Of a DNA stretch of 64,000 nucleotides, positions 3-51,177 are shown in pieces. How positions within the stretch are numbered: position 1 is the stretch's first letter; each line of letters starts with the position of its first letter. The notes under the pieces are model-generated. The model did not search any database, was not told the origin of the DNA, and saw only the letters and a list, made by a program, of their open reading frames with translations. The DNA lies in the IMG/VR virus record IMGVR_UViG_3300017917_001687, positions 1 through 64,000 of that record; one strand, 5' to 3'. A program made the position numbers and the translations under genes. Source of the stretch: a virus.

Positions 3-3000
3 AGTGGTACATCAGGAATTTCTGGAATCAGTGGATTATCTGGCACTTCAGGTATAAGCGGTTTATCTGGTACATCAGGAATTAGTGGTTCAAGTGGAAT
101 TTCTGGAATCAGTGGTCGTTCAGGTATTAGCGGTTTGAGCGGATTATCTGGTACATCGGGAACTTCAGGTATCTCTGGTTTAAGTGGCACATCAGGTATT
201 TCAGGTCAAAGTGGTACTTCTGGTATAAGTGGTTTATCTGGAACATCAGGACTTTCTGGTATAAGTGGATTGAGTGGAAACTCGGGAACATCAGGTATTA
301 GTGGATTATCAGGAACCTCTGGAATCAGCGGTACGTCTGGTATCTCCGGTTCAAGTGGAACCTCAGGTATCTCTGGTTTATCAGGTACAAGCGGTATAAG
401 TGGATTAAGTGGAACATCTGGTATCAGTGGTCTGAGTGGTACGTCTGGTCTTTCAGGTACAAGCGGAACATCTGGTATATCGGGATTATCAGGAACTAGT
501 GGAATTTCAGGTTTATCTGGTACAAGTGGAATAAGTGGCACATCAGGAATTAGTGGAACCAGTGGTATATCTGGATTATCAGGTACTTCGGGTATTAGTG
601 GAACTAGTGGATTAAGTGGAACATCAGGACTTTCAGGTCAAAGTGGTACTAGTGGTATAAGTGGATTGTCAGGAACTTCTGGTATCTCAGGATTAAGTGG
701 TCAATCGGGAACTTCAGGAATTAGTGGAATATCAGGACAATCTGGAACATCTGGTATTAGTGGTTTGAGCGGTCAATCAGGTATCTCTGGATTGAGTGGT
801 ACTTCAGGTTTATCTGGTACAAGTGGTTTAAGTGGTACGTCAGGAATTTCTGGATTAAGTGGAAGATCTGGTATCTCAGGACTTTCGGGAACAAGTGGGT
901 TGTCTGGTACTTCGGGTATAAGTGGAACATCTGGTTTGTCAGGAACATCCGGTACTTCAGGTATAAGTGGATTAAGTGGACAATCTGGTACATCGGGTAT
1001 CTCTGGATTAAGTGGACAATCTGGTACATCGGGTATCTCTGGTACTTCAGGTATCTCTGGATTGAGTGGACAATCTGGTACATCAGGAATTAGTGGTTTA
1101 TCTGGTCAATCAGGAACATCAGGACTTTCGGGTCAATCTGGTACTAGTGGTATTAGTGGAATCTCAGGAATTAGTGGTATAAGCGGATTATCTGGTACTA
1201 GTGGAATAAGTGGAACTTCAGGAACATCGGGAATATCAGGTCAAAGCGGTACTAGTGGTTTATCTGGTACATCAGGTACTTCTGGTATAAGTGGATTGTC
1301 AGGAACTTCAGGTTTATCTGGCACATCTGGATTAAGTGGAACTTCTGGTACGTCAGGTATTAGTGGTTTGAGTGGACAATCTGGAATTAGCGGATTATCG
1401 GGGACTTCTGGTATAAGCGGAACTTCTGGTATTTCAGGTTCAAGTGGTACATCAGGAATTTCTGGAATAAGTGGAATTAGTGGTCGTTCAGGTATAAGTG
1501 GATTAAGTGGAAACTCAGGTACTTCGGGTATCTCTGGTTTATCAGGAACTTCGGGATTGTCTGGAAATAGTGGAATATCAGGACAATCTGGTCTTTCAGG
1601 TACCAGTGGAACTAGTGGTGTTTCAGGATTATCAGGACAATCTGGAACATCAGGAATCTCAGGACTTTCGGGTATAAGTGGATTAAGTGGTACATCTGGT
1701 CTTTCGGGAACATCTGGTACCTCTGGATTATCAGGTCAAAGTGGTACATCAGGAATAAGTGGATTATCTGGAAACTCGGGTTTAAGTGGAACATCAGGTA
1801 TCTCTGGATTTTCAGGTACTTCAGGTATTAGTGGTACATCCGGTATAAGTGGTTTATCAGGTCAATCAGGAACTTCAGGTATATCAGGATTAAGTGGTAC
1901 GTCTGGTGTATCAGGTATCTCTGGTCTTTCAGGTACTAGTGGATTATCGGGTTCAAGCGGAACTTCTGGTCTTTCGGGAACAAGTGGAACTTCTGGTATA
2001 AGTGGTTTATCAGGAACTTCGGGATTGTCTGGAAATAGTGGAATATCAGGACAATCTGGTCTTTCAGGACAATCTGGAACATCTGGTATCTCAGGACTTT
2101 CGGGAATAAGTGGGTTGTCTGGTACTTCAGGTACATCTGGTCTTTCGGGAACATCTGGTACAAGTGGATTATCTGGTCAATCTGGAACATCAGGTATTAG
2201 TGGTTTAAGTGGAGTATCAGGACAATCTGGTACTTCAGGTATATCGGGATTATCTGGTACATCAGGAATCTCTGGATTGAGTGGTAACTCAGGAATAAGT
2301 GGATTGTCAGGAACTTCAGGTTTATCTGGTACAAGTGGATTGTCAGGAACTTCAGGTTTATCTGGTACAAGTGGGTTGAGTGGAATATCAGGACTTTCGG
2401 GTCAATCTGGAACTTCAGGAGTAAGTGGTTTATCAGGACAATCTGGTACATCAGGTATTAGTGGTTTAAGTGGTACTAGTGGAATAAGTGGATTATCTGG
2501 AACCAGTGGAATTAGTGGTCGTTCAGGTATTTCTGGACTAAGTGGTACATCAGGTATTTCTGGGTTATCAGGAACTTCGGGATTGTCTGGAACCAGTGGA
2601 TTATCAGGAATAAGTGGATTATCAGGTCAATCTGGCACATCAGGAATCTCAGGACTTTCAGGTACTTCAGGTACATCTGGTCTTTCGGGAACAAGTGGAA
2701 CATCGGGTATTAGTGGTCAATCGGGTACTTCAGGTATTAGTGGGTTATCTGGTACTTCAGGTATATCGGGTACGTCAGGAACCTCTGGATTATCAGGTCA
2801 AAGTGGAACATCGGGTATTTCTGGAATTAGTGGACTTTCTGGTACAAGTGGTACTTCTGGTATCTCGGGACAATCTGGATCCTCAGGTATCTCTGGTTTA
2901 TCAGGAACATCCGGAACTTCAGGTATATCAGGATTAAGTGGTGTTAGTGGAACATCGGGTATTTCAGGACAATCTGGTACTTCTGGTCTTTCAGGTTCAA

Positions 3001-3650
3001 GTGGAACATCAGGTATTTCTGGATTAAGTGGAACCTCAGGTACATCAGGATTGTCTGGAAATAGTGGAACATCAGGATTATCAGGAACATCTGGAACATC
3101 GGGATTATCAGGAACTAGTGGAACATCAGGTTTATCAGGTCAAAGCGGTACTTCTGGTATATCGGGATTATCAGGAACTTCGGGAATCTCGGGCGTGTCA
3201 GGTATTAGTGGACGTTCTGGTATCAGTGGTCTTGTGGGTGAATCGGGATTAAGTGGAAGAAGTGGTATTTCAGGATTATCTGGTACTTCGGGAACTTCAG
3301 GTATTTCTGGATTAAGTGGAACCTCAGGTACATCAGGAATCAGTGGTTTATCTGGTACTAGTGGTACATCAGGTATTAGTGGAACTTCAGGATTATCTGG
3401 TACTTCGGGAACTTCAGGTATTTCTGGATTATCTGGTTCTTCGGGATTGTCTGGAACTAGTGGTTTATCAGGTACGAGTGGAATATCGGGATTAAGTGGT
3501 ACTTCTGGCATCTCAGGATTATCTGGTAATAGTGGAACATCGGGAATTAGTGGAATATCAGGACAATCTGGAACTTCAGGTATAAGTGGATTAAGTGGTC
3601 GTTCTGGTATCTCTGGTATAAATGGTACTAACGGAACCAACGGAACCAAC
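3..3650 (+). repeat. 9-bp-period coding tandem repeat (SGX)n
   Basis: Degenerate tcN/agt-ggN-NNN units; contains exact internal duplications, e.g. 1535-1600 = 2003-2068. Confidence 0.95.
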
Positions 3651-5051
3651 GGAGCATTATCATTAACGTGGGATCTGAATACATCTTCATCGTCTAGTCC
3701 AAGTACTGGAGAATTTAACACATATAACGGATCAACGTATGGTACATTAACATTTAGTTTAATTCAAAAATTAGTAATTAATGAAACATCAATACAGGGT
3801 ATTGCCACATCATTATTAGATACGATAAGTACGGCATTATCTAATAATCAAAAAGTATACCTTCAGATTACTGAATCTGATGACAACACAACTACGAGTT
3901 CTTTTCAAGTAACCGCCATTAGTTTATCCTCTGGTGTTTACACTCTTGACGTTACTGCATTATATGCAAATGGTACGATGACAAACGGAGATCGTTATGT
4001 AATCTCTACTAGTATAGGTGGATTATCTGGAACTAGCGGATTGTCAGGAACAGCGGGTAGTGCAGGTAGTGCGGGTACATCAGGTATCAGTGGATTGTCA
4101 GGAACAGCGGGTAGTGCGGGTACATCAGGTATCAGTGGATTAAGTGGACAATCTGGAACTTCAGGATTAAGTGGAACATCTGGCACATCAGGTATTAGTG
4201 GTGTATCAGGAAGAAGTGGAATTTCAGGTTTAAGTGGAATTTCAGGTTTAAGTGGAATTTCAGGTTTAAGTGGAATTTTACCGGCAGGTGTGAGCGGTTC
4301 GGTACCATATCACAATGGAACAAGCTGGGTTGTTAACAGTTTAAACTTATTCCATAATGGTTCTGTTGTTGGTGTTGGATTAAGTGCCCCAACCGCAGAA
4401 TTACATGTTAGAGGTTCGGGTTCAACAAGTGGATCAACCACATTAAGAATTGAAAATAGTGGGGCAACACCATCATTAGTGGTTAGAGATGATGGTAATG
4501 TTGGTATCGGTACAGCATCACCAACATCAAAATTATTAGTGTCGGGAACAACAAACGTAGTAAGTATTGTTGGTAGTGGAAGTACATTACCATTATTCAC
4601 GGTTCAAGGGTCGTTAGGTGAGTTATTTTCTGTTACAGATAGTTTAACCGGTTCGTTATTTAGTGTTAACGATATATCAGGATTACCAATATTAGAAGTT
4701 TTCTCTGATAACACAATAACCGCAGGTGATTACGCGGCACCTGCATTGATTACAACAGATAAACTAACGATAGCGGCAAGTGGAACCACATATGATTTAT
4801 TCACAATACCATCTACTTACGACACTGCATTTGTTGATTACACAGTTAGAAACTCTGCAGGCACAAGAGCGGGTCAAATCGCAGCAACATGGAGTGGCAC
4901 AACAATTGTTTTCAGTGAAACAACGACAACCGATATTGGTAGTACAACACCTGTTTCGGTGTTTGTGAGAATGTCAGGATCAACCGCAATAGTATCAACA
5001 TCGGCAACAACAACTAACTGGGTGGTTAAAACAATTTTAAGGGGTATTTAA
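3..5051 (+). CDS. Giant (Gly-X-Ser)n collagen-like/glycine-rich fibre protein, 5'-truncated by window edge
   Basis: Frame is open from position 3 (agt ggt aca tca gga...), so the 135 start is not the real one. About 400 uninterrupted G-[TILQ]-S triplets, a globular insert, a second repeat block, then fibre-type GNVGIGT motifs near the C-terminus. Confidence 0.85.
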
Positions 5052-5055
5052 TAAT

Positions 5056-5769
5056 ATGGCATTTAATTATTCACCAAAAATAATAACAGATGGTTTAGTA
5101 TTGTATTTAGATGCGGCCAATACTAAAAGTTACCCAACTACTGGAACAACTTGGAGTGATATTTCAAGGGTGGGTAATAACTGTAGTTTAACTAATGGTC
5201 CAATATTTAATAGCCAAAATGGAGGAAGTATTGTGTTTGATGGTACCGATGATTATGGTTTAATGAATAACGTCATAAATCTATCCAATAGATTTACTAT
5301 AAATGCTTGGGTTAGATTAAATTCTACCACACCACAACCTACAAACTTTTCTAATAGGGTAATATTAATATCTAATTGTTATCCTTATCAAGCAAACAAA
5401 GGATTCTTAATGTCGGCATCTGGGAACAATGGATCTGATTTTTGGATTTCACTAGGTGCCGACCAAAAATTTGCAGTTTCAACAACTGGTTATACTTCAC
5501 CAAATACTAACATCATGTTAACCGCTACAGTTAATGCTGGAGATAGTAATATAAAATTATTTTTCAATGGACAAGAGGTTTCTTACAACACCAGAACTGA
5601 TGGAAACATTAGTTTAGCATATGATGTGGGCAGTACACAAATTGGTTTTAGATCGACTGGTGATATTATGAACGGAAGATTATATTCGATGCAGTTATAT
5701 AATCGAGCACTATCAGATTTAGAAGTATTACAAAACTATAACACGACAAGAACAAGATTCGGATTATAA
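5056..5769 (+). CDS. LamG/concanavalin A-like lectin-domain virion protein
   Basis: IITDGLVLYLDAAN...FDGTDDY...YNRALSDLEVLQNYN pattern typical of phage LamG-like proteins. Confidence 0.8.
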   Translation: MAFNYSPKIITDGLVLYLDAANTKSYPTTGTTWSDISRVGNNCSLTNGPIFNSQNGGSIVFDGTDDYGLMNNVINLSNRFTINAWVRLNSTTPQPTNFSNRVILISNCYPYQANKGFLMSASGNNGSDFWISLGADQKFAVSTTGYTSPNTNIMLTATVNAGDSNIKLFFNGQEVSYNTRTDGNISLAYDVGSTQIGFRSTGDIMNGRLYSMQLYNRALSDLEVLQNYNTTRTRFGL

Positions 5770-5773
5770 AATT

Positions 5774-6445
5774 ATGTCAGCAACAATTGCACCAAATATG
5801 ATAACAGATGGTCTAATATTCTACTTAGACGCAGGAAATACCAAAAGTTATATTGGTACTGGAACAACATGGAATGATTTAGGTAGTACTAATTTAAAAG
5901 GAACCTTAACCAATGGTCCAACATTTAGTAGTGCTAGTGGTGGTACCATTACATTTGATGGTACAAATGATTATGTATCAATGTCTTCACTTTCTCTCGT
6001 AATAACAGGTGGTACTTTTATTGTATGGGTAAGAAGAAATGGTATTCAGGTTAATTTTACAGGATTACTATATAATAGAGTTAGTTTAGGTACAGGTTTA
6101 TCTTTAGCTGCTGATATGATTAATTATAGTTGGAATAATGAACCTAATACTTATAATTGGGTGAGTAACCTAACCATACCAAATTTACAATTTTCTATGT
6201 GTGCAATATCAGTGAATAGTACATCTGCAGTTGCCTACTTATGCCAATCCTCAGGAATTTCGTCAGCAACTAATAATGTAAGTCACGGAAGTGCAACATT
6301 AGAAACGTTGTGGGTTGGTTACGATGGTATTGACCCCAGATATTTTAAGGGTAATATTGGTCAAGCATTTATATATAATAGGGATTTATCATCCACAGAA
6401 ATAGAACAAATTTTTAGAGTAACAAAAATAAGATATGGATTATAA
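5774..6445 (+). CDS. LamG/concanavalin A-like protein (paralog 2)
   Basis: ITDGLIFYLDAGN, FDGTNDY, YNRDLSSTEI; clear paralog of 5056. Confidence 0.8.
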   Translation: MSATIAPNMITDGLIFYLDAGNTKSYIGTGTTWNDLGSTNLKGTLTNGPTFSSASGGTITFDGTNDYVSMSSLSLVITGGTFIVWVRRNGIQVNFTGLLYNRVSLGTGLSLAADMINYSWNNEPNTYNWVSNLTIPNLQFSMCAISVNSTSAVAYLCQSSGISSATNNVSHGSATLETLWVGYDGIDPRYFKGNIGQAFIYNRDLSSTEIEQIFRVTKIRYGL

Positions 6446-6698
6446 CAATAGAGAATATATGATTTTTAGCATAACGGAGTTATCTAAAATCGATTTTAGT
6501 CAAGTACTGGAAACATCATCAGAAACTGTTAGAAAATCAGTTGATGGTACAAAAACATTTGTAAAATGGGTTGGCGAAACCATTCCCTCAAGCGTAGAAA
6601 GTTTAATAACAAAAGAGGGTCCTTACACTCACGATGAGATTATTGTAATTTTATCAACATCTGAGTGGATTGATCCTAATATGTTTATGGGAGGTTAA
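6435..6698 (+). CDS. Hypothetical small phage protein
   Basis: 87-aa ORF tightly coupled to its neighbours. Confidence 0.7.
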   Translation: MDYNNREYMIFSITELSKIDFSQVLETSSETVRKSVDGTKTFVKWVGETIPSSVESLITKEGPYTHDEIIVILSTSEWIDPNMFMGG

Positions 6699-6699
6699 T

Positions 6700-7473
6700 A
6701 TGAGTAGTGTTGGAAATTGGAGGGGTCCGGATATAGTAAAAGATGGGTTGGTGTTCTATTTTAATGCAGCATCCCCCAATTCATTTTATTCCCCCTCATC
6801 AAGCACATTGGTAAAAAATATTGTGGATTTTTCTACCACTTCTTCATTAACCGGATCTTTAGTAAATGGTGCTTCATTTAGTAGTGGATTTGGTGGTACT
6901 TTTAATTTTGATGGTGTGGATGATCATATTGCTTTAGGTACATTTCCATCTATTAGTTTTGCAAATGGTATAACAATAGATGTTGTGGTTAGGTTTACAG
7001 CACTTGGAGGTGGTGGTTGGGAAAGGTTCATAGATTTAACATCACAAACAGGTACTTTAATTCAGTTTGGACGACATTCTGTTTTTTCAAATGTGTTTTT
7101 TTCTTGTAAGAATATCACAGGGGGCGATGCAGCACTAAATCGACGCTTTCAAAGTACTGGAACAACCATAACAACCAATCAAATAACAATGTATTCGGTC
7201 ACCCTACCCGCTGGTACACCAGGTGATGTTACCCCAGGTTGTGTACTTTATAGAAACGGGGCGGTGATAAATGGTCAATTAGCAACCGCCAACGAAAACC
7301 CCAGATTACCATCAACACAATCCAGAGAGATTGGATATATTGCAAGATCACCATTTGCAGGTAATTCTTTTTTAAATGGATCTGTATACCAATTAAAGAT
7401 ATATAATAGACAATTAACTGCCACGGAAGTTCTTAAAAACTACAACGCAATAAAAGGTATATTCGGTATATAG
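6700..7473 (+). CDS. LamG/concanavalin A-like protein (paralog 3)
   Basis: IVKDGLVFYFNAA, FDGVDDH, YNRQLTATEVLKNYN; start moved to ATG 6700, just after the upstream stop. Confidence 0.8.
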   Translation: MSSVGNWRGPDIVKDGLVFYFNAASPNSFYSPSSSTLVKNIVDFSTTSSLTGSLVNGASFSSGFGGTFNFDGVDDHIALGTFPSISFANGITIDVVVRFTALGGGGWERFIDLTSQTGTLIQFGRHSVFSNVFFSCKNITGGDAALNRRFQSTGTTITTNQITMYSVTLPAGTPGDVTPGCVLYRNGAVINGQLATANENPRLPSTQSREIGYIARSPFAGNSFLNGSVYQLKIYNRQLTATEVLKNYNAIKGIFGI

Positions 7474-7507: not shown

Positions 7508-8323
7508 ATGCCAAACGAATTGAAAATAAATAATGGTGCCGAGGTTATTGGTAGTATTTCATTGGGTAGTGGTACAACAACAAATGCCGTTATACAAAGA
7601 AGACAGACACCAGCAGTATCATCAGGTAGTGGTGCAACAATATACTCAACTATTTTTGCCGCTGGTAATGGAATAGGAAACACATCCCCATATACCATGA
7701 GAGATGATCATGGTGCAACCATAGAATTAAGAGCGGGTACTCCAACATCAGATCAGTATGGTGGTGGTATTTTTATTAGTGCAAACGGTCATACAAGTGC
7801 ATTGGGTAATGGTAACGCTATTGTATTTAGGAATCGTACAGGTGTTGATACATACACAGAACGCATGAGGATTGCGAAAGATGGTAAAGTTGGTATAAAC
7901 AGTAGTTCCCCAAACGCACAACTTACAGTTCAAACTAGTGTGGGTGGGCTTGGGTTAAATGTGACAGATGCAACTGGTAGTGATCTTAATGTGACCCCTG
8001 GTGTTTCTTCAGGTGTTGTTAGGGTAGGACCAAGTGTGGGTCAAATGGCATTTTACGCCAATGGTTCCGAAGCCATGCGTATTGATACTGATCTACAGGT
8101 GGGTATAGGTGTTACCACCATAGGTGCAAGGCTTCATGTAAATGGATCTATAAGGGTAGATAATCAAGCATATGTTAGTGTTCTTGGAACAAATACCGGT
8201 ACTCCAACCCAATATTATGGTAGTGATGGTTCTATTTATTTAAGCGACCCCGCATATTGGTTAAAAATATTCTTAGATGATAGTAGTACTAATTATTACA
8301 TACCCGTTTATATATCAACATAA
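7508..8323 (+). CDS. Tail fibre-like structural protein
   Basis: Two ERMRI..GKVGI / EAMRI..QVGIG fibre repeats; preceded by TATTTATA at 7478. Confidence 0.65.
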   Translation: MPNELKINNGAEVIGSISLGSGTTTNAVIQRRQTPAVSSGSGATIYSTIFAAGNGIGNTSPYTMRDDHGATIELRAGTPTSDQYGGGIFISANGHTSALGNGNAIVFRNRTGVDTYTERMRIAKDGKVGINSSSPNAQLTVQTSVGGLGLNVTDATGSDLNVTPGVSSGVVRVGPSVGQMAFYANGSEAMRIDTDLQVGIGVTTIGARLHVNGSIRVDNQAYVSVLGTNTGTPTQYYGSDGSIYLSDPAYWLKIFLDDSSTNYYIPVYIST

Positions 8324-8338
8324 CCAACATAAATTTTG

Positions 8339-8346
8339 TATATTTG
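8339..8346 (+). promoter_or_regulatory. Bacteroidota sigma70-like -7 element (TATATTTG) upstream of glycosylation operon
   Basis: Matches the TAnnTTTG consensus; lies in the intergenic gap 8324-8393. Confidence 0.4.
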
Positions 8347-8393
8347 GTTTACTATTGTTTTTTTTTAGGTTATTTTTTTAACCAAAAAAGATA

Positions 8394-9665
8394 ATGGATA
8401 CAACTGTTGTGATTCATAGTGAATCAAACGAAAAATTATTAACCATATTAAAAAAAATGGATAAATTTAGGATTCAAAGAAACCTATCCATTTTTGTACA
8501 TTCAAAAAATTATTTTCCAGAAGACGATTGTAAAAAATACGTTGTAAATTACAAAACGTATGCCATTTTCCCAACAGAAAAAAACACAATAGATTCTATC
8601 GTTGAGATGCTTTTAAGGGTAAAAACCAAAAACGTATTAATTGTTAATGAAGATTCACCAGATTTTTCTTTTGAAAAGTGGGACAATAAAAACCACAACT
8701 ATCTGTTTGGTGATTTACAAGATATTTTAAAACTAAAATTTGACACCAAATATGAGGGTTTATACAATTTCGTTATAGATTTAAAATCACAATACAATAA
8801 AACAAAATACGAAACCGATTTATCTACCAAAGACGGACTAAGATATTCAAACAAAATAAAAAATCCATTATTTGATGAAAACATAATTTACATTGATGGT
8901 GGTTTGGGTGATCATATTATGGCACTTCCATTATTGGAGAGTATGGGTGGTAATTTATATATTTCATGTAAGTATCCATTTGTTTTTAATCACATAAAAA
9001 ATAAAGGTTTTATCGATTGGAACGATGAGTTGTTTGGTGGTTATAACAGGTTTGTTTACGAATATGGATCAAGAAATAACTCCAAAACAATTATCGATGC
9101 GTTTTTTGAGTTATATGGTAAAAAAAGAACAGAAAAAGACATTCTAAAATACAATGGTGAATCAACAATTGTACAAGAATTATTAAATAAAAAATTGGCA
9201 TTAATTTGTACAAGTGCCGCCAAAATACAAAACCAAGACTCAAATAAAGATTGGAGAGATATTAGGTGGTTCAAACTTATTCATGAATTAAAAAAAATGG
9301 GTTATTTTGTTGTACAAGTGGGTACCACAAAAGACAATCAAATACCAAATGTGGATTACAAATTTTTAGATAAACCATTATCTGAATTAAAATTTGTTAT
9401 TGAAAACTCATCATTATGGATTAGTGTTGATACTTTTTTTCACCACTTTGCATCTGCAATAAAACCAAACGTTGGTATTTGTTTAACTCCTTTTTATAAT
9501 GACCACGCTAAACATCCCGGAGTAACATACATTGAAAAAGATTGTGGTAAAAATTTCTCGGACAGAAAATGGTGGCTGGACTTACAACAACCAGAAAGAA
9601 AAGAATGTATGGATTTAATAATGGTTGATGATGTTTTAAAAAACATAGAAAAAAGATATGAATAA
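8394..9665 (+). CDS. GT9-like (heptosyltransferase-type) glycosyltransferase
   Basis: DGGLGDHIMALP and ISVDTFFHHFASA motifs, as in GT9 GLGD...D[ST]G..H.A.A. Confidence 0.75.
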   Translation: MDTTVVIHSESNEKLLTILKKMDKFRIQRNLSIFVHSKNYFPEDDCKKYVVNYKTYAIFPTEKNTIDSIVEMLLRVKTKNVLIVNEDSPDFSFEKWDNKNHNYLFGDLQDILKLKFDTKYEGLYNFVIDLKSQYNKTKYETDLSTKDGLRYSNKIKNPLFDENIIYIDGGLGDHIMALPLLESMGGNLYISCKYPFVFNHIKNKGFIDWNDELFGGYNRFVYEYGSRNNSKTIIDAFFELYGKKRTEKDILKYNGESTIVQELLNKKLALICTSAAKIQNQDSNKDWRDIRWFKLIHELKKMGYFVVQVGTTKDNQIPNVDYKFLDKPLSELKFVIENSSLWISVDTFFHHFASAIKPNVGICLTPFYNDHAKHPGVTYIEKDCGKNFSDRKWWLDLQQPERKECMDLIMVDDVLKNIEKRYE

Positions 9666-10650
9666 AATAAAGGTTAAAATCCATTCGAATGATTTTGATA
9701 TAGATAATTGTTCTAATTGGAGATCCAATTTACAATATAATGGGGAAATTGAAGATGTGGAAATAACTTTCTACAAATCACATGTTTATTATTTTGAAGA
9801 TGATTTAAATTACGATGTGATTGTATTTATTAGACCACTACTAGGTTATGCCGAATACATCAAAGCACTAAAAAACGCAGGAAAAATAGTGATTGTGGAT
9901 TTTGACGATCCACTTCCAATGGTTTTTGATAAATCACTAGTGAAAGAAAATATAATACAAACATTATCAATATTTGATAGTTGTGATTTAGTTACAACAA
10001 CAAATGAAAGTATGAAAACATATTTTTATTACCATACATATAAAGATAAAATTGAGATATTACCCAATGTGATAAATAAAAAATTTGTTAATAAGAATAA
10101 AAAAAACAACTCTGATAAAATTATTTTAGGTTGGTTTGGGAATGGTGGTCACATAAGCTCTTTACAACAGATTAATGATATTATCTTAAAAATTTTAAAT
10201 GAGAATGAAAACGTTTTTTTAAACTTATATTCAGATAATAATAATATTTTTGAGTTATTTAATCACCCAAAAACGAATAAAATAAACTATGTTTATAATT
10301 TTGAAATTTTTCAAGATAGTTTGAATGATGTTGATATAAATTTAGCACCACTAGATGAAAATTATTTTAATTTAAATAAATCAAACATAAGAATCATTTT
10401 ACCCGGATATAAAGGTATACCTTCAGTTGCAACCAATTTTGGTGAATATAAAAAAATAGGAAAGGATAACATACTTTTATGTGATTCTGGTGAAGATTGG
10501 TATAATAATTTAATGTTGTTAATAAATGATTCAAACTTAAGAAAAAACATGGGATACAACATTCAAAAATATGTTGAGGAGTATTTTTCTTTTGAAAAAT
10601 GGTCAACGATTAAAAGTAAAATGTTTAAAAATCTAATAAACAAAAACTAA
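9658..10650 (+). CDS. GT-B fold (GT4-like) glycosyltransferase
   Basis: VDFDD, LPNVI, ILGWFG, DINLAPL..N.FN..KSN, GIPSVAT motifs. Confidence 0.75.
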   Translation: MNKIKVKIHSNDFDIDNCSNWRSNLQYNGEIEDVEITFYKSHVYYFEDDLNYDVIVFIRPLLGYAEYIKALKNAGKIVIVDFDDPLPMVFDKSLVKENIIQTLSIFDSCDLVTTTNESMKTYFYYHTYKDKIEILPNVINKKFVNKNKKNNSDKIILGWFGNGGHISSLQQINDIILKILNENENVFLNLYSDNNNIFELFNHPKTNKINYVYNFEIFQDSLNDVDINLAPLDENYFNLNKSNIRIILPGYKGIPSVATNFGEYKKIGKDNILLCDSGEDWYNNLMLLINDSNLRKNMGYNIQKYVEEYFSFEKWSTIKSKMFKNLINKN

Positions 10651-10654
10651 TAAT

Positions 10655-13600
10655 ATGGTAATAGTACAGCTGGGTTCAAACAAGGGTAATGATAAATTAA
10701 CCGAATACATTAAAAATAACAACATAAATTTAGAACTGGGTTTGTTTGTTGAAGCAATTCCATTCCATATAGATGAATTAAAAGAGTGTTATAAAGATTA
10801 TCCTAATGCGGTGATAGAAAATAATGCAATAAAACTACCACGGGATGAAAAAACTGAAATGGTTATTTATTACCACTTAGATGACGGACCAAAATATGAG
10901 GTTGCATCTTTTGATAAGAACCATATATTAAAACACTATACAACCGATAATATCGAAAGTATTAAGGTACCATCAATGACCTTGGAAGAAATTTTGGATA
11001 AACACAACATAACAAAAATAGATTGGTTATTGATTGATGTTGAAGGTTTGGATGCCGAAATAGTTGAAACATTTAATTGGTCAAAATACGATATTGATAG
11101 AGTTGATGTTGAACATATACATTGGGGTATAAAAAGAGATTATTTATTCCAAAAGTTTTACGATATGGGGTATAAACATGTAGTGGCGAACGATGATAGA
11201 TATGATGTTGCGTTTGAAAAAATTATTGTTAATGATCAAAAAATAGAACATTTTTATCAAAACATTGGGGAGGATTGGTTTGGACATTCCAATTTTTATA
11301 GTGAAATTGTAAATAAATTCCCTGATGACTCACATTTTGTGGAGGTAGGTGTATGGAAAGGTAGGGGTGCTGCTTATATGGCCACAGAAATTATTAATTC
11401 TGGTAAAAAAATAAAATTTGATTGTGTGGATAATTGGGAGTATTCTGATTTACAAAAGGACATTCCTGAAAATTTATATGAAAATTTATATGAAACATTT
11501 TTAGAAAATGTAAAACCTGTTAAACATATGATTAACCCAATTAAGTTATTATCTCATGATGCATCTAAATTATATGAAAACAATTCTTTAGATTTTGTCT
11601 TTATTGATGCGGCACACGATTATGAAAATGTTAAAAGAGACATTGAATCTTGGTTACCAAAAATTAAGGTTGGTGGTATCTTAGCTGGTCACGATTATGA
11701 GACATCAATTGATGGTGTTAAAAGGGCTGTTGATGAAGTTTTTAAAAATAAAGAAATAACAAATAAAGAAAATTGTTGGATATACGAAAAAAAAAATAAT
11801 ATGAAAAATTATAAAGTAATAGACACCTTTATTTTTGGTGGAGAACTAGAAATTCTAAAAATGAGATTGGATTATTTATATGATTCAGTTGATTATTTTG
11901 TTTTTTCTGAAGCAAATAAAACACATACTGGTGAACCAAAAGAACTAACTTTTTTATCAAACATTGAAATGTTTGAAAGTTATAAGGATAAGATTCATTA
12001 TGTGATTTATGAACCAGACATTACAAATTTAAATCTTAAGGTTACTCCAGAAGATATTTTTAAATCTGATCTATGGAAATTAGAAAGAACTCAAAGAAAT
12101 CAAGTTCATAGTAAAGTTATGGAATTATCCGATCAATCAACTATGATTTTACATTCCGATTGTGATGAATTTCCTGATAAAACAAAATTTGACGAATTAA
12201 GAGAAATGACCAAAGATTTATTTTTAGAGGTCGTATCTCTTGAACAACCAACATACTATTACTCCCCTATAAATTTATTAGAAATGAGTTGGTATGGAAC
12301 GGTTGCTTTCAATCACCAAACATTAATTAATTTATCGGATTATTTTTCTGTTAGAGAAAATAGATTTCAATCAAAACACCTTGAAAATGCTGGTTGGCAC
12401 TTTTCATTTTTTGCAACACCAGAAAAAATTAAACATAAAATACAGACGTATACTCACCAAGAATATAATACACCAGAAATTGTTAATATAGAAACGATTA
12501 AAAATAAAATTTATAATGGTTTAGATGTATTAAATAGATCTGATGTTAAAATTAACAAATTAAGTGAAATCAGCTCAGAATTCCCGATGGAATTTCATAG
12601 ACATGAATTATTTTTTAAAAATACATTTGATAGGGGTTATCTAAAACCGCAACAGGTTTATAGAAAAAACATATCGATGCAAATACCATTAGAAATTGAA
12701 AATCTTCAATTAACTGTTACAAATCATAATCCTAAAGTTATTGTTGAAATTGGTACTGCCAATGGGGGTACACTCGCAAGATGGTTAGAAATACCATCAT
12801 CAGAAACAATAATTTCGATTGATTACCCAGTAGGTATACATGGTGGTCAAGGATTTGAAGAAAGAACTTATGTAATATCTGATGCTGTAGAACAATCAAA
12901 TTTGACTAAAAAAGAATTTTATGCGGTAAATGGTAATAGTAAAGATCCATATTTAATTAATCGTGTTAACGAATTATTAAACGGAAGAAAAATTGACTTC
13001 TTATTCATAGATGGTGATCACACGTATGAAGGTGTAAAAGGTGATTTTGAAATTTACAAACAATTTTTATCGGATGATGCTATTGTTGGATTTCACGATA
13101 TTATCAATAGTGAATACCATATTCAACATAATTGTTATGTATCAAAGTTTTGGAACGAACTAAAAGAAGAATACGAGTGTAAAGAATTTATTCATACTGA
13201 ACATATTGATTTAAAGATGTTACCACATTTGGGACAAACAAAAAAAGATGGTGGATTTGGTGGTATCGGTTTAATTGAATATAGAAAAAAAAAAGATTTA
13301 ACGGATAATTTATCAATCATTGTCCCAATTTATGGAAATGTGGACGACACCATAAATAATTTAAATATAACATTATCACACTCAAAAAATGTTGATGATG
13401 TTATATTGTATTCAAATGGTACTGATGATGAAGGTGTTAATAAATTAAAAAATTATGCATCGTTTGATAGTAGAATTAAATTATTCACTATTGACAAACC
13501 AATTGGGTTTGTAAAAGCGGTAAACGAATCATTAAAGAAAACAAAGAATGAATTTATTTTATGTTTAAACTCCGATGCTCATTTGTTTGGTGACTGGGAG

Positions 13601-16600
13601 AATAGATTACTACCTCTTTTTAAGAACGACAAGTATGGTGTTGTTGGACCAGTTATGGCACGTGATTTCATTCTTGGTTGTTGTTTTGGTTTTAAAAAAT
13701 CGGTAATAAACAAGATTGGTATGTTAGATGAGGGGTTTGGTTTGGGGTATGAGGATGATGTTGAGTACTCGGAAAGAGTTAAAAATTGTGGGTATGAGTT
13801 AGGGTATTGTGAATATAAAGACGACTTTGGTTGGAATCCCATGATTAATTTTCCAATTTACCACAAACAGGGTGACTCATTTAACAAAATAAGTAACAAC
13901 ATAATTGAAGATCTAGTAAACGTAAACTCAGAAAAAAGACTAAAATTTAAAACATTACAAAATGTAACGTTATTAAAAAATTTAAATTATGAAGACGTAT
14001 TACCATATTTAGAGACCAATGATAATTTAATAGTAATTAATAAATCAGGATCCGAATTTGAAAAAATTAGAAACGATGAAAATATAATTAGAAAATGTAG
14101 AGTGTTTGAAATAACCTCAAGTATGGATATAAACCAAGTTATTGATTCACTTACAAAAGGAAAATCTTATGAAATAGTTGATTATAATTACGATGAGAAA
14201 ATATCTTTGGTGGTTCCCATTTTTAATAATGTTGAAATTGCAATTGATAATATCAACACAACTCTACAATCTTCAAAAAGAATAAATGAAGTTATTTTAT
14301 TTTCAAATGGAACTAGTGATGAAGGTAATTCTTTACTAACGGACTTTGCAAATTCAAATAAAAATATTAAACTTTATTTCTCTAAAAACCCAATTGGTTT
14401 TGTTAAAGCAGTAAATGAAAGTTTCAAATTATGCACCAATGAATTAATTTTGTGTTTGAATAGTGATGCTAATCTATATTATGATTGGGAAGATAAACTA
14501 ATGATTCTATTAAAAGATAGTTCAAATGGTTTAATTGGTCCTGTTGCTGTTAATTGTAATACAATATTAGGTTGTTGTTTTATAATAAGAAAAAGTTTAT
14601 TAAATAAAATTGGAATGTTAAATGAAGGACTTGGAATGGGGTATTTTGATGATGCTGATTTAAGTTTTAGGGTTACGAATAACGGATTAAATTTAGGTTA
14701 TCACCATACAATAAACTCATGGGATAATAACACAATGGTAATTGATTTTCCTTTTAATCACTCACAAGGATTAAGTTTTTCCCAATTAAATATAGAATCC
14801 ACCAATAGTGAATTAAAAAGAAATGAAAAAAAATTAAAAAATTATTTTACATCTAATAAAGTTTTAATTTTAAAGGATTTAACACAAGATAAAATAAAAT
14901 CAATTATAGATGAGAATGGTGTCTACTTGGTTGTGAATAATAGCGGAGAAGAGTTTGAAAAAATTAGATATGATGAAGATATCGTATCAAAAACACATAT
15001 TTTTGAATGTACAAATGAAATGAATATTGATGTGTTGATAGATTCTCTCACAAAAAATAAAGAAAAATTTATTATAGACGATACTAACTACGAATCAATC
15101 AAAAGTGAAACAGATAAATTAATAATGAGGTATGATATAATTAACAGTTTAATTAAAAAAAATAATTATAAATCATATTTGGAAATAGGTGTAAGAATAC
15201 CTGACAATTGTTTTGATTTGATTGAATGTGAAACTAAACACGGGGTAGACCCTATGGTTGAAGTGGATTATCCTGTTACATTTAAATTAACCTCTGATGA
15301 TTTTTTTGATCAGAATACAAACACATATGATATAATTTTTATTGATGGATTACATTTAGATTATCAAGTAGAAAAAGATATCATCAATAGTTTAAAAATT
15401 TTAAATGACGGAGGAACCATTGTTTTACACGATTGTAATCCACCAGATGTTTATCACCAGAGAGAAAATTATTATGACATTACAACGCCAGCAAATTGGG
15501 GTTGGACAGGAACTGTATGGAAAGCCGTTGTTAAAGTTAAGTCTGAAATTGATAATATAGATCTCTGTGTTGTGGATACGGATTATGGGGTTGGTATATT
15601 ACAAAAATCAAATAATTCAAATAAAATAATTAATGACAATCCAAATTATTCTTTTGAAATCTTTGAACAAAATAAAAAATATTATTTAAATTTAATTTCT
15701 AGATTAGAGTTTTATCTAAAGTATATTTACGAACCCATAGAATTAAAAAAAAAATTAACTTGGTTAGCGAAGTATGATGATTATTCATCTATGGGTATTT
15801 TATCACAAAAAGTTTTAGAAAATCTTAAAAACACTGATATATCATGTAAAGAGATTATTGGTAAAACAGAAACAGATAACAAACTTATCTTAGATTCAAT
15901 TAAAAAATCAATTAATCATGAGTTGGGTATAATGTTTGCGTACCCTGACATGATAAACGAGCTAAACACCTTTAAAACTAAAGTAATTTATACGGGTGTT
16001 GATACAACAGGTGGTATTCCAAACTTTGCGGAAAATTGTAATAAGGCAGATTTTTTATTAACACCTTCAAATACATCAAAAGTTATGATGGAAAATCTTG
16101 GTGTAAAAAAACCAATTTTTGTTTTTCCACATGGTGTTGACACTGATTTATTTAAATTTAAAGAAAGAAAAAAATCGGATGTGTTTAAATTCTTATATGT
16201 TGGGGAGTGTTCTGACAGAAAAGGTATATTTTCTTTATTATCTGCATTTACATATCTTTTTACTAATAATTTAAATGTTGAATTACACATAAAATCAAAT
16301 ACTGCAATGTTATTCTATGGTTCAGATAAAATAAACGAAATTATAAACACACATAAAAACATTATTTGGCGCGTGAGTAACGAAGGTCACGAAAAGGTGA
16401 TTGAATTATATGACGAATGTAATGCATATGTTTACCCATCAAGAGCAGATACTTTTGGAATGACCTTAATTGAAGCAATGTCTTGTGGTTTACCGATAAT
16501 ATCAACAAACAACCCGGGTTCAACCGAATTAATTAAGGGTCGTTACTTTGAGGTTTCAAGTAAAAATGTTCCAGTTCAAAACCATCCATGGATGTTAGGT

Positions 16601-17518
16601 GAATGGGGTGAACCAAGTGTCACTGAGTTAATAAGACAAATGAAATATGTTTATAATAATTACACCCAAATAGTTGGGTCTAACATTTTACCAAATAATT
16701 CAAAACATATTCAGGAAAACTACTCATGGGATAAGGTTGTTTTGAAGTTTGAAAAAGAAATATTACCAAACCTTAAAAAAAATAGAAAAGTAATTACATT
16801 ATTAACATCTTTTAACAGACCACACCACATAAAAAATGTAATAAACTCACTAAAAGACATTAGAGAAAATGATGTGGAAAATGTTATATATGTTGTGGAA
16901 AACTCAAACCAAGAAAATAAAGAAGAAATTTTAAACATAATCAAACAAAATATTGATGATTTATTCATGATACATGTTTCTGAATTTAATTTAGGGCAGA
17001 GAGGTGCGTTGTTACAACTATTAGAGGATATTAATGTTGATGATTATGATTATATCCAATTTACCGACCAAGACAACATATTCAACGAACCAATAAGTAC
17101 GTTTTGTGATATTTTAGATGAAAACCCAGATATGTTCTTCACAACAGGATATATGAGTAAAGAACACCCTGAACTTGGTTGGAGAAAAACTCGGTTTGGT
17201 AATCTTTGTGAAAAAAGGACTTTACGAGCAGGACACATGGTAATGAGAATTAGTGATTTAAAATCATTGTTTCCAATACATTTAGACTCACAATATGGTA
17301 AAGAACACAACTCAACGTGGAATGCGGGGTTAGACTGGGAATTATCTTGTTGGAATGCAAAATCACCAGGTAGAAGATTTGCTGGTAATATTGCTTTGTG
17401 TGTTCCAGGTGGTGTGTTACACAAGGGTATTGATAGTACAATGCATGAGTGGAATGTTGAAGAATATGAATATAAATTAGAAGAATTGATTAATTTAAGA
17501 AATAAAACCAACCATTAA
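10655..17518 (+). CDS. 2287-aa multidomain methyltransferase/glycosyltransferase
   Basis: FkbM-like MTase (IDVEGLD), class I MTase (VEVGVWKG, FIDAAHDY), GT17-like (ELEILKMRL, GWHFSF), MTase (VEIGTANGG, FIDGDHTY), two GT2 (LNSDA), MTase (LEIGV, FIDGLH), GT4 (FGMTLIEAMSCGLP), C-terminal GT-A-like (TSFNRP, DQD). Confidence 0.85.
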   Translation: MVIVQLGSNKGNDKLTEYIKNNNINLELGLFVEAIPFHIDELKECYKDYPNAVIENNAIKLPRDEKTEMVIYYHLDDGPKYEVASFDKNHILKHYTTDNIESIKVPSMTLEEILDKHNITKIDWLLIDVEGLDAEIVETFNWSKYDIDRVDVEHIHWGIKRDYLFQKFYDMGYKHVVANDDRYDVAFEKIIVNDQKIEHFYQNIGEDWFGHSNFYSEIVNKFPDDSHFVEVGVWKGRGAAYMATEIINSGKKIKFDCVDNWEYSDLQKDIPENLYENLYETFLENVKPVKHMINPIKLLSHDASKLYENNSLDFVFIDAAHDYENVKRDIESWLPKIKVGGILAGHDYETSIDGVKRAVDEVFKNKEITNKENCWIYEKKNNMKNYKVIDTFIFGGELEILKMRLDYLYDSVDYFVFSEANKTHTGEPKELTFLSNIEMFESYKDKIHYVIYEPDITNLNLKVTPEDIFKSDLWKLERTQRNQVHSKVMELSDQSTMILHSDCDEFPDKTKFDELREMTKDLFLEVVSLEQPTYYYSPINLLEMSWYGTVAFNHQTLINLSDYFSVRENRFQSKHLENAGWHFSFFATPEKIKHKIQTYTHQEYNTPEIVNIETIKNKIYNGLDVLNRSDVKINKLSEISSEFPMEFHRHELFFKNTFDRGYLKPQQVYRKNISMQIPLEIENLQLTVTNHNPKVIVEIGTANGGTLARWLEIPSSETIISIDYPVGIHGGQGFEERTYVISDAVEQSNLTKKEFYAVNGNSKDPYLINRVNELLNGRKIDFLFIDGDHTYEGVKGDFEIYKQFLSDDAIVGFHDIINSEYHIQHNCYVSKFWNELKEEYECKEFIHTEHIDLKMLPHLGQTKKDGGFGGIGLIEYRKKKDLTDNLSIIVPIYGNVDDTINNLNITLSHSKNVDDVILYSNGTDDEGVNKLKNYASFDSRIKLFTIDKPIGFVKAVNESLKKTKNEFILCLNSDAHLFGDWENRLLPLFKNDKYGVVGPVMARDFILGCCFGFKKSVINKIGMLDEGFGLGYEDDVEYSERVKNCGYELGYCEYKDDFGWNPMINFPIYHKQGDSFNKISNNIIEDLVNVNSEKRLKFKTLQNVTLLKNLNYEDVLPYLETNDNLIVINKSGSEFEKIRNDENIIRKCRVFEITSSMDINQVIDSLTKGKSYEIVDYNYDEKISLVVPIFNNVEIAIDNINTTLQSSKRINEVILFSNGTSDEGNSLLTDFANSNKNIKLYFSKNPIGFVKAVNESFKLCTNELILCLNSDANLYYDWEDKLMILLKDSSNGLIGPVAVNCNTILGCCFIIRKSLLNKIGMLNEGLGMGYFDDADLSFRVTNNGLNLGYHHTINSWDNNTMVIDFPFNHSQGLSFSQLNIESTNSELKRNEKKLKNYFTSNKVLILKDLTQDKIKSIIDENGVYLVVNNSGEEFEKIRYDEDIVSKTHIFECTNEMNIDVLIDSLTKNKEKFIIDDTNYESIKSETDKLIMRYDIINSLIKKNNYKSYLEIGVRIPDNCFDLIECETKHGVDPMVEVDYPVTFKLTSDDFFDQNTNTYDIIFIDGLHLDYQVEKDIINSLKILNDGGTIVLHDCNPPDVYHQRENYYDITTPANWGWTGTVWKAVVKVKSEIDNIDLCVVDTDYGVGILQKSNNSNKIINDNPNYSFEIFEQNKKYYLNLISRLEFYLKYIYEPIELKKKLTWLAKYDDYSSMGILSQKVLENLKNTDISCKEIIGKTETDNKLILDSIKKSINHELGIMFAYPDMINELNTFKTKVIYTGVDTTGGIPNFAENCNKADFLLTPSNTSKVMMENLGVKKPIFVFPHGVDTDLFKFKERKKSDVFKFLYVGECSDRKGIFSLLSAFTYLFTNNLNVELHIKSNTAMLFYGSDKINEIINTHKNIIWRVSNEGHEKVIELYDECNAYVYPSRADTFGMTLIEAMSCGLPIISTNNPGSTELIKGRYFEVSSKNVPVQNHPWMLGEWGEPSVTELIRQMKYVYNNYTQIVGSNILPNNSKHIQENYSWDKVVLKFEKEILPNLKKNRKVITLLTSFNRPHHIKNVINSLKDIRENDVENVIYVVENSNQENKEEILNIIKQNIDDLFMIHVSEFNLGQRGALLQLLEDINVDDYDYIQFTDQDNIFNEPISTFCDILDENPDMFFTTGYMSKEHPELGWRKTRFGNLCEKRTLRAGHMVMRISDLKSLFPIHLDSQYGKEHNSTWNAGLDWELSCWNAKSPGRRFAGNIALCVPGGVLHKGIDSTMHEWNVEEYEYKLEELINLRNKTNH

Positions 17519-30536: not shown

Positions 30537-30649
30537 TGTAAAAAATAAGAAAAAAAAATAACAAAGTCAAGCAACACAATAAAAATATTTTTCAAATACG
30601 TAGTATTTATAGGAAAAGAAAATAACTAAAAAAATTAAGAAATAAAAAA

Positions 30650-51132: not shown

Positions 51133-51177
51133 TAAACAAAAAAATTTTACTAACTAAAAAAAAATAAATTTATCACT

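Follow-up and report, generated by a model that had tools for sequence, protein, structure and literature searches.

Ten-adenine runs at the module junctions of a phage transferase gene probably reflect lysine-rich fusion seams

The window analysed here, a stretch of 64,000 nucleotides (64 kb), is the first part of a single viral contig of 74,056 bp (IMG/VR record IMGVR_UViG_3300017917_001687), which carries genes for a tail sheath, tube, baseplate, DnaB-type helicase, ribonucleotide reductase and family-B DNA polymerase and so represents part of an uncultured, myovirus-like phage. One of its open reading frames (ORFs), P0001, encodes 2287 amino acids (aa) and contains three runs of exactly ten adenines (A10). 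An initial annotation read these runs as slippage or phase-variation switches that yield nested truncated enzymes or, alternatively, as a record of how the gene's fusions arose. Here we describe the locus, its relatives, codon-usage nulls and structure models, and conclude that the A10 runs are probably the DNA image of Lys-rich loops (EKKN, RKKK and LKKK) joining formerly separate enzyme genes into one 11-module polypeptide, and not programmed switches.

Results

Adenine runs in an eleven-module ORF

The domain order of P0001 is FkbM-methyltransferase, MT24, GT17, CmcI/MT24, GT2, X, GT2, X, MT24-like, GT4 and GT2-like. Nine of these 11 modules are recognisable transferase domains, with Pfam matches above the cut-off for five glycosyltransferases (GT) and four methyltransferases. 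By this make-up, P0001 is a predicted multi-module viral glycan-building enzyme of the A064R-like kind.

The coordinates of the three A10 runs and of a further A8 run, all noted in the initial annotation, are exact, and Pfam agrees with the placement described there: each A10 run follows a Methyltransf_24/CmcI-type domain and precedes GT17, GT2 or GT4, and the A8 run precedes the last, GT2-like domain. We refer to these four junctions as J1 to J4 (Table 1). A homopolymer census of the whole contig found no runs of ten or more other than the three A10 runs, all in P0001; coding runs elsewhere reach eight at most, and the 9-mers (T9 at 8358, A9 at 30550 and A9 at 51156) all lie between ORFs. Five of the six runs of at least eight adenines in P0001 stand at module boundaries, the A8 at 15155 being the sole one placed within a domain. 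More widely, a 9-kb island (8000-17518) holds 6/8 of the coding A8 runs of the contig and 3/3 of its A10 runs. The J1 seam also contains an out-of-frame TAA (11797-11799) beside the ATG at 11801, while neither J2 nor J3 of the window shows a start-codon or stop relic. Tract 1 is the only one with a restart ATG downstream.

Table 1. Positions in the window of P0001, its modules, its adenine runs and the adjacent genes of the same island.
Feature	Position	Strand	Residues, codons or remarks	Basis
Two further glycosyltransferase-like genes, same island	8394..10650	+	A8 runs at 8450, 9290 and 10099 within genes	
ORF P0001	10655..17518	+	2287 aa	ORF list, translation, Pfam, PHROGs
FkbM-type methyltransferase domain	10742..11125	+	residues 30-157	Pfam PF05050
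Methyltransf_24 (MT24) domain	11339..11698	+	residues 229-348	Pfam PF13578
A10 tract 1 (J1), MT24 to GT17	11787..11796	+	GAA AAA AAA AAT, E378 K K N381	sequence, AlphaFold model
ATG (M383) inside the J1 seam	11801..11803	+	begins the separate GT17 gene where relatives are split (M[KR][ND]YK[VI]ID)	sequence, relatives
GT17 domain	11810..12532	+	residues 386-626	Pfam PF04724
CmcI / rhamnosyl O-methyltransferase-like MT24 domain	12677..13108	+	residues 675-818	Pfam PF04989, PF13578
A10 tract 2 (J2), CmcI-like methyltransferase to GT2	13285..13294	+	AGA AAA AAA AAA, R877 K K K880	sequence, AlphaFold model
First GT2 domain	13313..13660	+	residues 887-1002	Pfam PF00535
Second GT2 domain	14204..14527	+	residues 1184-1291	Pfam PF00535
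A8, past the Pfam GT2 match (end residue 1291), before the second X segment	14826..14833	+	E K K, residues 1391-1393	sequence, Pfam
Third MT24-like methyltransferase domain	15122..15724	+	residues ~1490-1690	Pfam
A8 in the N-terminal helix (residues 1492-1503) of the third MT24-like domain	15155..15162	+	K K N, residues 1501-1503	AlphaFold model
A10 tract 3 (J3), MT24-like to GT4	15745..15754	+	TTA AAA AAA AAA, L1697 K K K1700	sequence, AlphaFold model
GT4 (GT-B) domain	15755..16759	+	residues 1701 to ~2035, starts LTWLAKYD	Pfam PF00534, PF13692, PF20706; AlphaFold model
A8 (J4), GT4 to C-terminal GT2-like	16775..16782	+	AAA AAA AAT, K2041 K N	sequence, AlphaFold model
C-terminal GT2-like domain	16805..17209	+	residues 2051-2185	Pfam PF00535

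Each junction is a gene boundary in some relatives

Relatives of the locus comprise L001, a viral contig with 61-70% identity, and 31 metagenomic loci from a scan with alignment A3, which show 61-70% identity in their C-terminal part, together with 56 long protein clusters of 1317-2865 aa from public data, whose displayed names are generic. A metagenome scan with the whole P0001 protein returned nothing, and a viral-contig scan with alignment A1 returned only the already known contig. Against the phage collection, megablast found no near relatives and tblastn gave distant single-domain matches only, the best at 47% identity over 9% of the query.

L001 and the 31 metagenomic loci contain the same modules in differing arrangements. 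J1 is split in 13 of 15 loci, the two fused ones being the window (A10) and L072 (A9, without an ATG), and in 33 of 40 long protein clusters GT17 starts its own gene (M[KR][ND]YK[VI]ID). The boundary in L001 reads CWIYEKIK TAA AAT ATG AGA GAT TAT AAA, with the protein restarting as RDYKVID; in the window it reads CWIYEKKNN ATG AAA AAT TAT AAA, the former start codon being retained. Seven fused GT17 forms join the domain to three different upstream partners (MT24, FkbM and GT1-like), all through seams rich in K, N and E, and three of them (the window, P0007 and P0020) keep the downstream Met. A retained Met is also found at the CmcI-to-GT4 seam of P0066 (KEKK-M-NG-FTWLAKFD).

The remaining junctions also occur in split form. 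J2 is split in L067 and L082 (M-KP-ISLIIPIY), in P0064 (ending in IKYSQ) and in P0069 and P0070 (starting M[NS]LSLIVPIY); in L065 and L085 the break falls at J3, where a separate ATG lies 3-5 codons before xTWLAKYD; and J4 is split in L094. Of 53 viral-contig homologues of the third methyltransferase, about 40 are ORFs on their own, about 200 aa long, which end 0-8 residues past the aligned part (up to about 60 if the alignment is partial).

Where the modules are fused, the seams are Lys-rich to varying degrees. Among 27 loci, J3 reads A10 in four, with a single A9 and two cases of A8, and the others have interrupted K-rich seams (NKPK, KTTK, KQKG, EEVK and others), and among protein clusters KKK occurs at J2 in 26/43, at J3 in 12/43 and at J4 in 5/42. 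As a separate observation, some relatives have and others lack the third methyltransferase module between two A-rich K-runs (L001, FRTNKK, module, NKKKR-LTWL, at 9621-11173, versus L084, FRESKKKR-LTWL; L084 and L066 at xTWLAKYD), and from these sequences the A runs may serve as microhomology for module gain or loss.

The 20 nucleotides upstream of the starts of called genes are 52% A, compared with 36.5% genome-wide, carry no Shine-Dalgarno motif and include several A7-A8 runs. Such A-rich leaders would fit a host in which translation begins independently of Shine-Dalgarno pairing. We also considered whether Lys-rich gene ends are common throughout this phage, and the case proved weak: at least two K in residues 2-5 occur in 5/42 genes and in the last five residues in 0/42, so that A-rich leaders are general and Lys-rich termini are not.

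Taken together, these comparisons support in substance the earlier suggestion that the tracts record how the fusions arose: J1-J4 are each a gene boundary in some relatives, a Met is retained in a seam, and leaders are 52% A. For tract 1, and for no other, it is plausible that the fusion arose when the tract itself lost one base from A11, although the comparison with L001 needs a three-base difference instead.

The seams are predicted to be short connectors

AlphaFold models built on alignments of relatives covered residues 197-1174 (mean pLDDT 77.5) and 1480-2287 (mean pLDDT 85.5). At J1 the model has a loop of eight residues (379-386) linking the final MT24 strand (374-378) to the initial strand of GT17 (387-393), and J2 is modelled as the end of the last CmcI-like strand (871-879) plus a 6-residue loop (880-885), followed by a GT2 strand (886-892). 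At J3, a low-confidence linker (pLDDT below 50 at 1694-1697) runs into the first GT4 strand (1699-1705), and at J4 a 4-residue loop (2040-2043) separates the last GT4 helix (2025-2039) from the first strand of the C-terminal GT2-like domain (2044-2052). In the models, every J1-J4 tract thus corresponds to a predicted short connector between independently folding domains.

In two stand-alone CmcI-like methyltransferases of 248 aa (P0074 and P0077), the GFGGIG strand is followed, at the place of RKKK in the window, by some 40 residues of basic tail (..RQKLRKKPRDIVV..), a hint that the basic patch behind the CmcI-like domain may have a separate function.

The number of A10 runs follows from the protein and its codon bias

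Whether the number of A10 runs is significant depends on the null chosen. A codon shuffle of P0001 gives 0.6 expected runs of at least ten adenines (P(>=3) = 0.021) and a first-order Markov estimate gives 0.8, while a protein-preserving synonymous permutation gives a mean of 1.62 (P(>=3) = 0.148). Under this permutation, runs of at least ten adenines ever form only at residues 378, 877 and 1697 (p = 0.62, 0.50 and 0.49), and AAA accounts for 170 of the 197 lysine codons of P0001 (86%). The excess is therefore at the level of the protein, with its Lys-rich junctions, and not of the codons: because of the permutation result and the AAA bias, the A10 runs are expected given the amino acids, and the point needing explanation is the placement of KK(K) at the junctions. 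Lys-rich linkers combined with AAA codon bias were the explanation that the initial annotation itself had set against switches, and the permutation bears it out. The other observation that would have told against switches, A10 runs being common elsewhere in coding DNA, is not made here; the remaining genome avoids A runs.

Neither length variants nor frameshifted alleles were found

The three A10 runs reach the length of slippage sites (at least nine A/T in the sense strand). At the consensus level, near-identical contigs from separate records show no tract-length differences: L073, L074, L075 and L095 (89-98%) and L076 and L080 (99%) all have A10 at J2. Among the 31 metagenomic loci, no allele is frameshifted at J1-J4, and the 56 long protein clusters likewise gave no allele frameshifted at a tract. 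A frameshift in L079 was considered as an OFF allele and set aside, being a single G deletion away from any run; indels between near-identical contigs were likewise considered as homopolymer instability, and lie mostly in divergent stretches, with one clean case (A8 versus A7, L076/L080) outside the gene. P0063 ends just after SKKKD, on a 1860-bp contig, which may be a mere contig-end cut.

The initial annotation had also pointed out that a one-base change at any tract brings a stop within a few codons. This is true (4-11 codons from the tract), but the distance equals the background median of 7 and 3 codons across the ORF, and we rejected quick off-frame stops as evidence of design. None of the shifted frames carries a conserved extension, and the full product is already read in the zero frame. 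Across lineages, J2 is exactly A10 in six of the ten with DNA, and the J1 and J3 tracts are not conserved. With no length polymorphism, no OFF allele, off-frame stops at background distance and tracts that fit linkers plus AAA bias, the proposal that the tracts are slippage or phase-variation switches yielding nested truncated enzymes is left unsupported.

Genomic surroundings

P0001 is the main gene of an island of glycosyltransferase-type genes at 8.4-17.5 kb, with a GC content of 27-28%, compared with 30-34% over most of the remaining window. Within P0001, a GT2 domain and a segment of about 100 aa, denoted X, form an internal tandem duplication in two copies; the segments lie at 13700-14200 and 14850-15150 (residues ~1060-1180 and 1390-1480), share the pattern ..NKSG.EFEKIR.DE.I....F E.T..M.I...I.SLTK.K and have no Pfam match. 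In most relatives the GT2-X unit is present as a single copy.

At the start of the contig, a fibre-like ORF of more than 1680 aa (3-5051, plus strand, open at the contig start) consists of nearly all Gly-X-Ser triplets with a globular C-terminal part, and stands directly upstream of LamG-like and glycosyltransferase genes. The contig starts inside this Gly-X-Ser repeat and ends in a Pro/Thr-rich repeat; the assembly breaks at its ends are thus probably in repeats. Three paralogous ORFs of about 220-260 aa at 5056-7473 (plus strand) share an N-terminal motif (..ITDGLV.YLDA.N.KSY) and C-terminal ends (..R.GL) and match virion structural protein PHROGs; among their junctions, two read TAATAATATG or TAAAATTATG. 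Nine aquatic or lake sequencing runs contain 0.06-0.15 of the sampled words of the stretch and two others contain next to nothing; the lineage is described as uncultured freshwater myovirus-like phages.

Discussion

The tract positions, the codon arithmetic, the split and fused states and the location of the linkers in the models are shown directly; from them we infer the absence of programmed switching. In the sequence of events that we propose, methyltransferase and glycosyltransferase genes of this lineage lie head to tail with no more than a stop codon and some A-rich bases between them, and would have been fused and re-split many times. Once a stop was lost, the A-rich end, leader and start would be read through as a Lys/Asn-rich linker; reading through such a boundary should yield Lys and Asn codons because leaders are 52% A and have no Shine-Dalgarno motif. 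With AAA making up about 86-96% of lysine codons in genes of 27-30% GC, a KK(K) linker would automatically appear as an A8-A10 run. The tracts would expose the gene to errors, as polymerases slip and ribosomes slide on AAA runs, and this would be tolerated, unlike in core genes: a frameshift at a seam would be cheap because it leaves whole upstream modules, which relatives make as separate, shorter products.

Several observations weigh against so neutral an account. In core genes, runs of at least 8, 9 and 10 adenines number 2, 0 and 0, compared with 12.1, 4.1 and 2.2 expected from within-gene synonymous permutation (P = 0/500, 0.004 and 0.068) and with 14.1, 4.9 and 2.7 from a pooled permutation, while the island, with 9, 3 and 3 against 7.6, 3.0 and 1.7 expected, shows no avoidance. 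The contrast recurs in 20 related loci, where P0001-homologous ORFs have 27, 12 and 8 such runs compared with 30.2, 14.1 and 6.5 expected, and other ORFs 21, 2 and 0 compared with 40.0, 9.0 and 3.4 (P <= 0.003). KKK is encoded entirely by AAA in 12/17 cases in the P0001 gene family and in 1/13 elsewhere (relatives pooled; Fisher p = 0.0008), all six KKK of the window genome outside P0001 containing AAG. Avoidance of A runs has been read as selection against slippage: runs of at least nine A are described as prone to it, and many AT-rich genomes as selecting against them (Baranov 2005, PMC1088944). Since the core genes purge A runs in the manner of that avoidance signature, such runs appear to be costly in this phage system, with the P0001 gene family exempt. 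We interpret the exemption as tolerance; positive retention, whether for slippage or for ribosome pausing on AAA runs, would leave the same traces. Moreover, six diverged lineages have exactly A10 at J2 (five TCA-AAA-AAA-AAA and one AGA-AAA-AAA-AAA) with adjacent four-fold sites scrambled, and this retention has P ~0.005-0.03 (AAA 0.91, TCA 0.44-0.55), an estimate that is post hoc and assumes independent lineages. Finally, one extra A at tract 1 gives GAA AAA AAA AAA TAA T ATG, which recreates a native-looking TAA-T-ATG with an intact start codon, of the type found before the ATGs at 6700 and 54097; the earlier comparison of this junction with TAATAATATG at 5049 and 10648 holds as a close resemblance but not as identity. 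At tract 1, a toggle between fused and split forms, or an assembly miscount, could thus still apply.

These are the observations on which exploited slippage would build. RNA polymerase slippage, or phase variation of the DNA, would give graded truncated enzymes (modules 1-2, 1-4, 1-9 and full), setting stoichiometry or varying the glycan, with tract 1 toggling between fused and split forms. Published precedents lend it weight: runs of nine or more A are slippage-prone (PMC1088944), an A11 tract is reported to give two functional TssM length variants (PMC4256274), and truncated A064R is reported to give truncated glycans and antigenic variants (PMC9614988). We nevertheless consider it unlikely here: the zero frame already gives the full product and the shifted frames end at background distance without a conserved extension, a restart codon exists at tract 1 only, tracts 1 and 3 are not conserved (J1 fused in 2/15 loci, J3 A10 in 4/27), neither length variants in near-identical contigs nor frameshifted alleles in the 31 loci were found, and the A10 count fits neutral codon choice. 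The stricter form, in which the tracts are selected slippage sites, as A10 occurring only at seams and J2 fixed at ten in six lineages could suggest, would produce a fixed ladder of nested enzymes and hence mixed short and long, differently methylated glycans, with a one-base toggle at tract 1; to this we give slightly less credence still.

Homopolymers are a classic place for length errors, and a true A11 at tract 1 would leave two genes, encoding a 381-aa FkbM-MT24 protein ending in EKKK and a 1905-aa protein from the ATG at 11801. The resulting TAA-T-ATG, the intact start codon and the 13 of 15 related loci that are split at J1 would all suit such a miscount. It is improbable all the same, as other sequences with MT24 upstream of GT17 include two committed fusions that have no start codon (L072, with A9, and P0005), an independent re-assembly of the probable source run has all the sampled words (share 1.00; weak, as the reads are the same), and the miscount would explain one tract only, J2 and J3 being fused in many relatives. 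Least probable of all, in our estimate, are translational pause sites, at which consecutive AAA codons would slow the ribosome at module boundaries and let each upstream domain of this 2287-residue, 11-module chain fold first. Iterated AAA is reported to lower output more than AAG and to let ribosomes slide (Koutmou 2015, PMC4363877), five of the six runs of at least eight adenines in P0001 stand at module boundaries, and AAA is used in 18/18 lysine codons at J2 in six lineages; however, AAA is already 86-96% of lysine codons, requiring no special choice, and many relatives have non-lysine or interrupted seams.

As a switch candidate, the finding is thus mostly deflated, the tracts being what Lys-rich fusion seams look like in a gene of 27% GC. 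What the gene family offers under the fusion-seam reading is an unusually clear natural fusion and fission series: dozens of relatives differ at four fixed seams, one module has three partners and start codons are retained. In this series, A-rich, Shine-Dalgarno-less gene boundaries can be followed as they turn into Lys/Asn linkers. The purging of A runs in core genes but not in the P0001 family would additionally provide a within-genome contrast in the tolerance of slippage-prone sequence. If slippage were used after all, viruses would have a hitherto undescribed means of diversifying a glycan coat.

Campylobacter jejuni has poly-G 'fusion' loci, cj0031/cj0032 among them, in which tract length decides between fused and split reading and varies within populations. 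The likeness to P0001 lies in a long homopolymer where two enzyme genes meet, and at tract 1 one base decides between a fusion and two proteins; in contrast to the variable C. jejuni tracts, those of the window showed no length variation between near-identical contigs, two of the three have no restart codon, and they consist of ordinary lysine codons.

A further comparison is with the transcriptional slippage sites described for the A9 of Thermus thermophilus dnaX (PMC1088944) and the A11 of Citrobacter rodentium tssM1 (PMC4256274), which likewise place A9-A11 in the sense strand part-way through a multi-domain gene; in P0001, slipped transcripts would give a shorter product without C-terminal domains. 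By the account of tssM1, however, making the full-length protein depends on slippage, and the short and long forms are each required (PMC4256274), whereas the templated frame of P0001 is already full length.

As an enzyme, P0001 resembles A064R of PBCV-1, an alga-infecting virus, described as a three-domain protein of 638 aa, and the likewise three-domain glycan enzyme A111/114R (PMC9614988): in each, a single viral polypeptide strings together glycosyltransferase and sugar O-methyltransferase modules. P0001 is much larger, with nine transferase domains in 2287 aa, belongs to a tailed phage, and is a predicted enzyme likened to A064R by domain make-up. Bacterial O-antigen systems of Klebsiella and E. 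coli (ORF6 of serotype O7, WbdA/WbdD and the O12 single-polypeptide system) are reported to use the same catalytic modules, GT2, GT4 and methyltransferase, fused in some systems and separate in others (PMC11231755). Those bacterial enzymes differ in having coiled-coil rulers and terminator modules, none of which is seen in P0001, and the parallel with its own seams lies in modules that are joined in one system and separate genes in the next.

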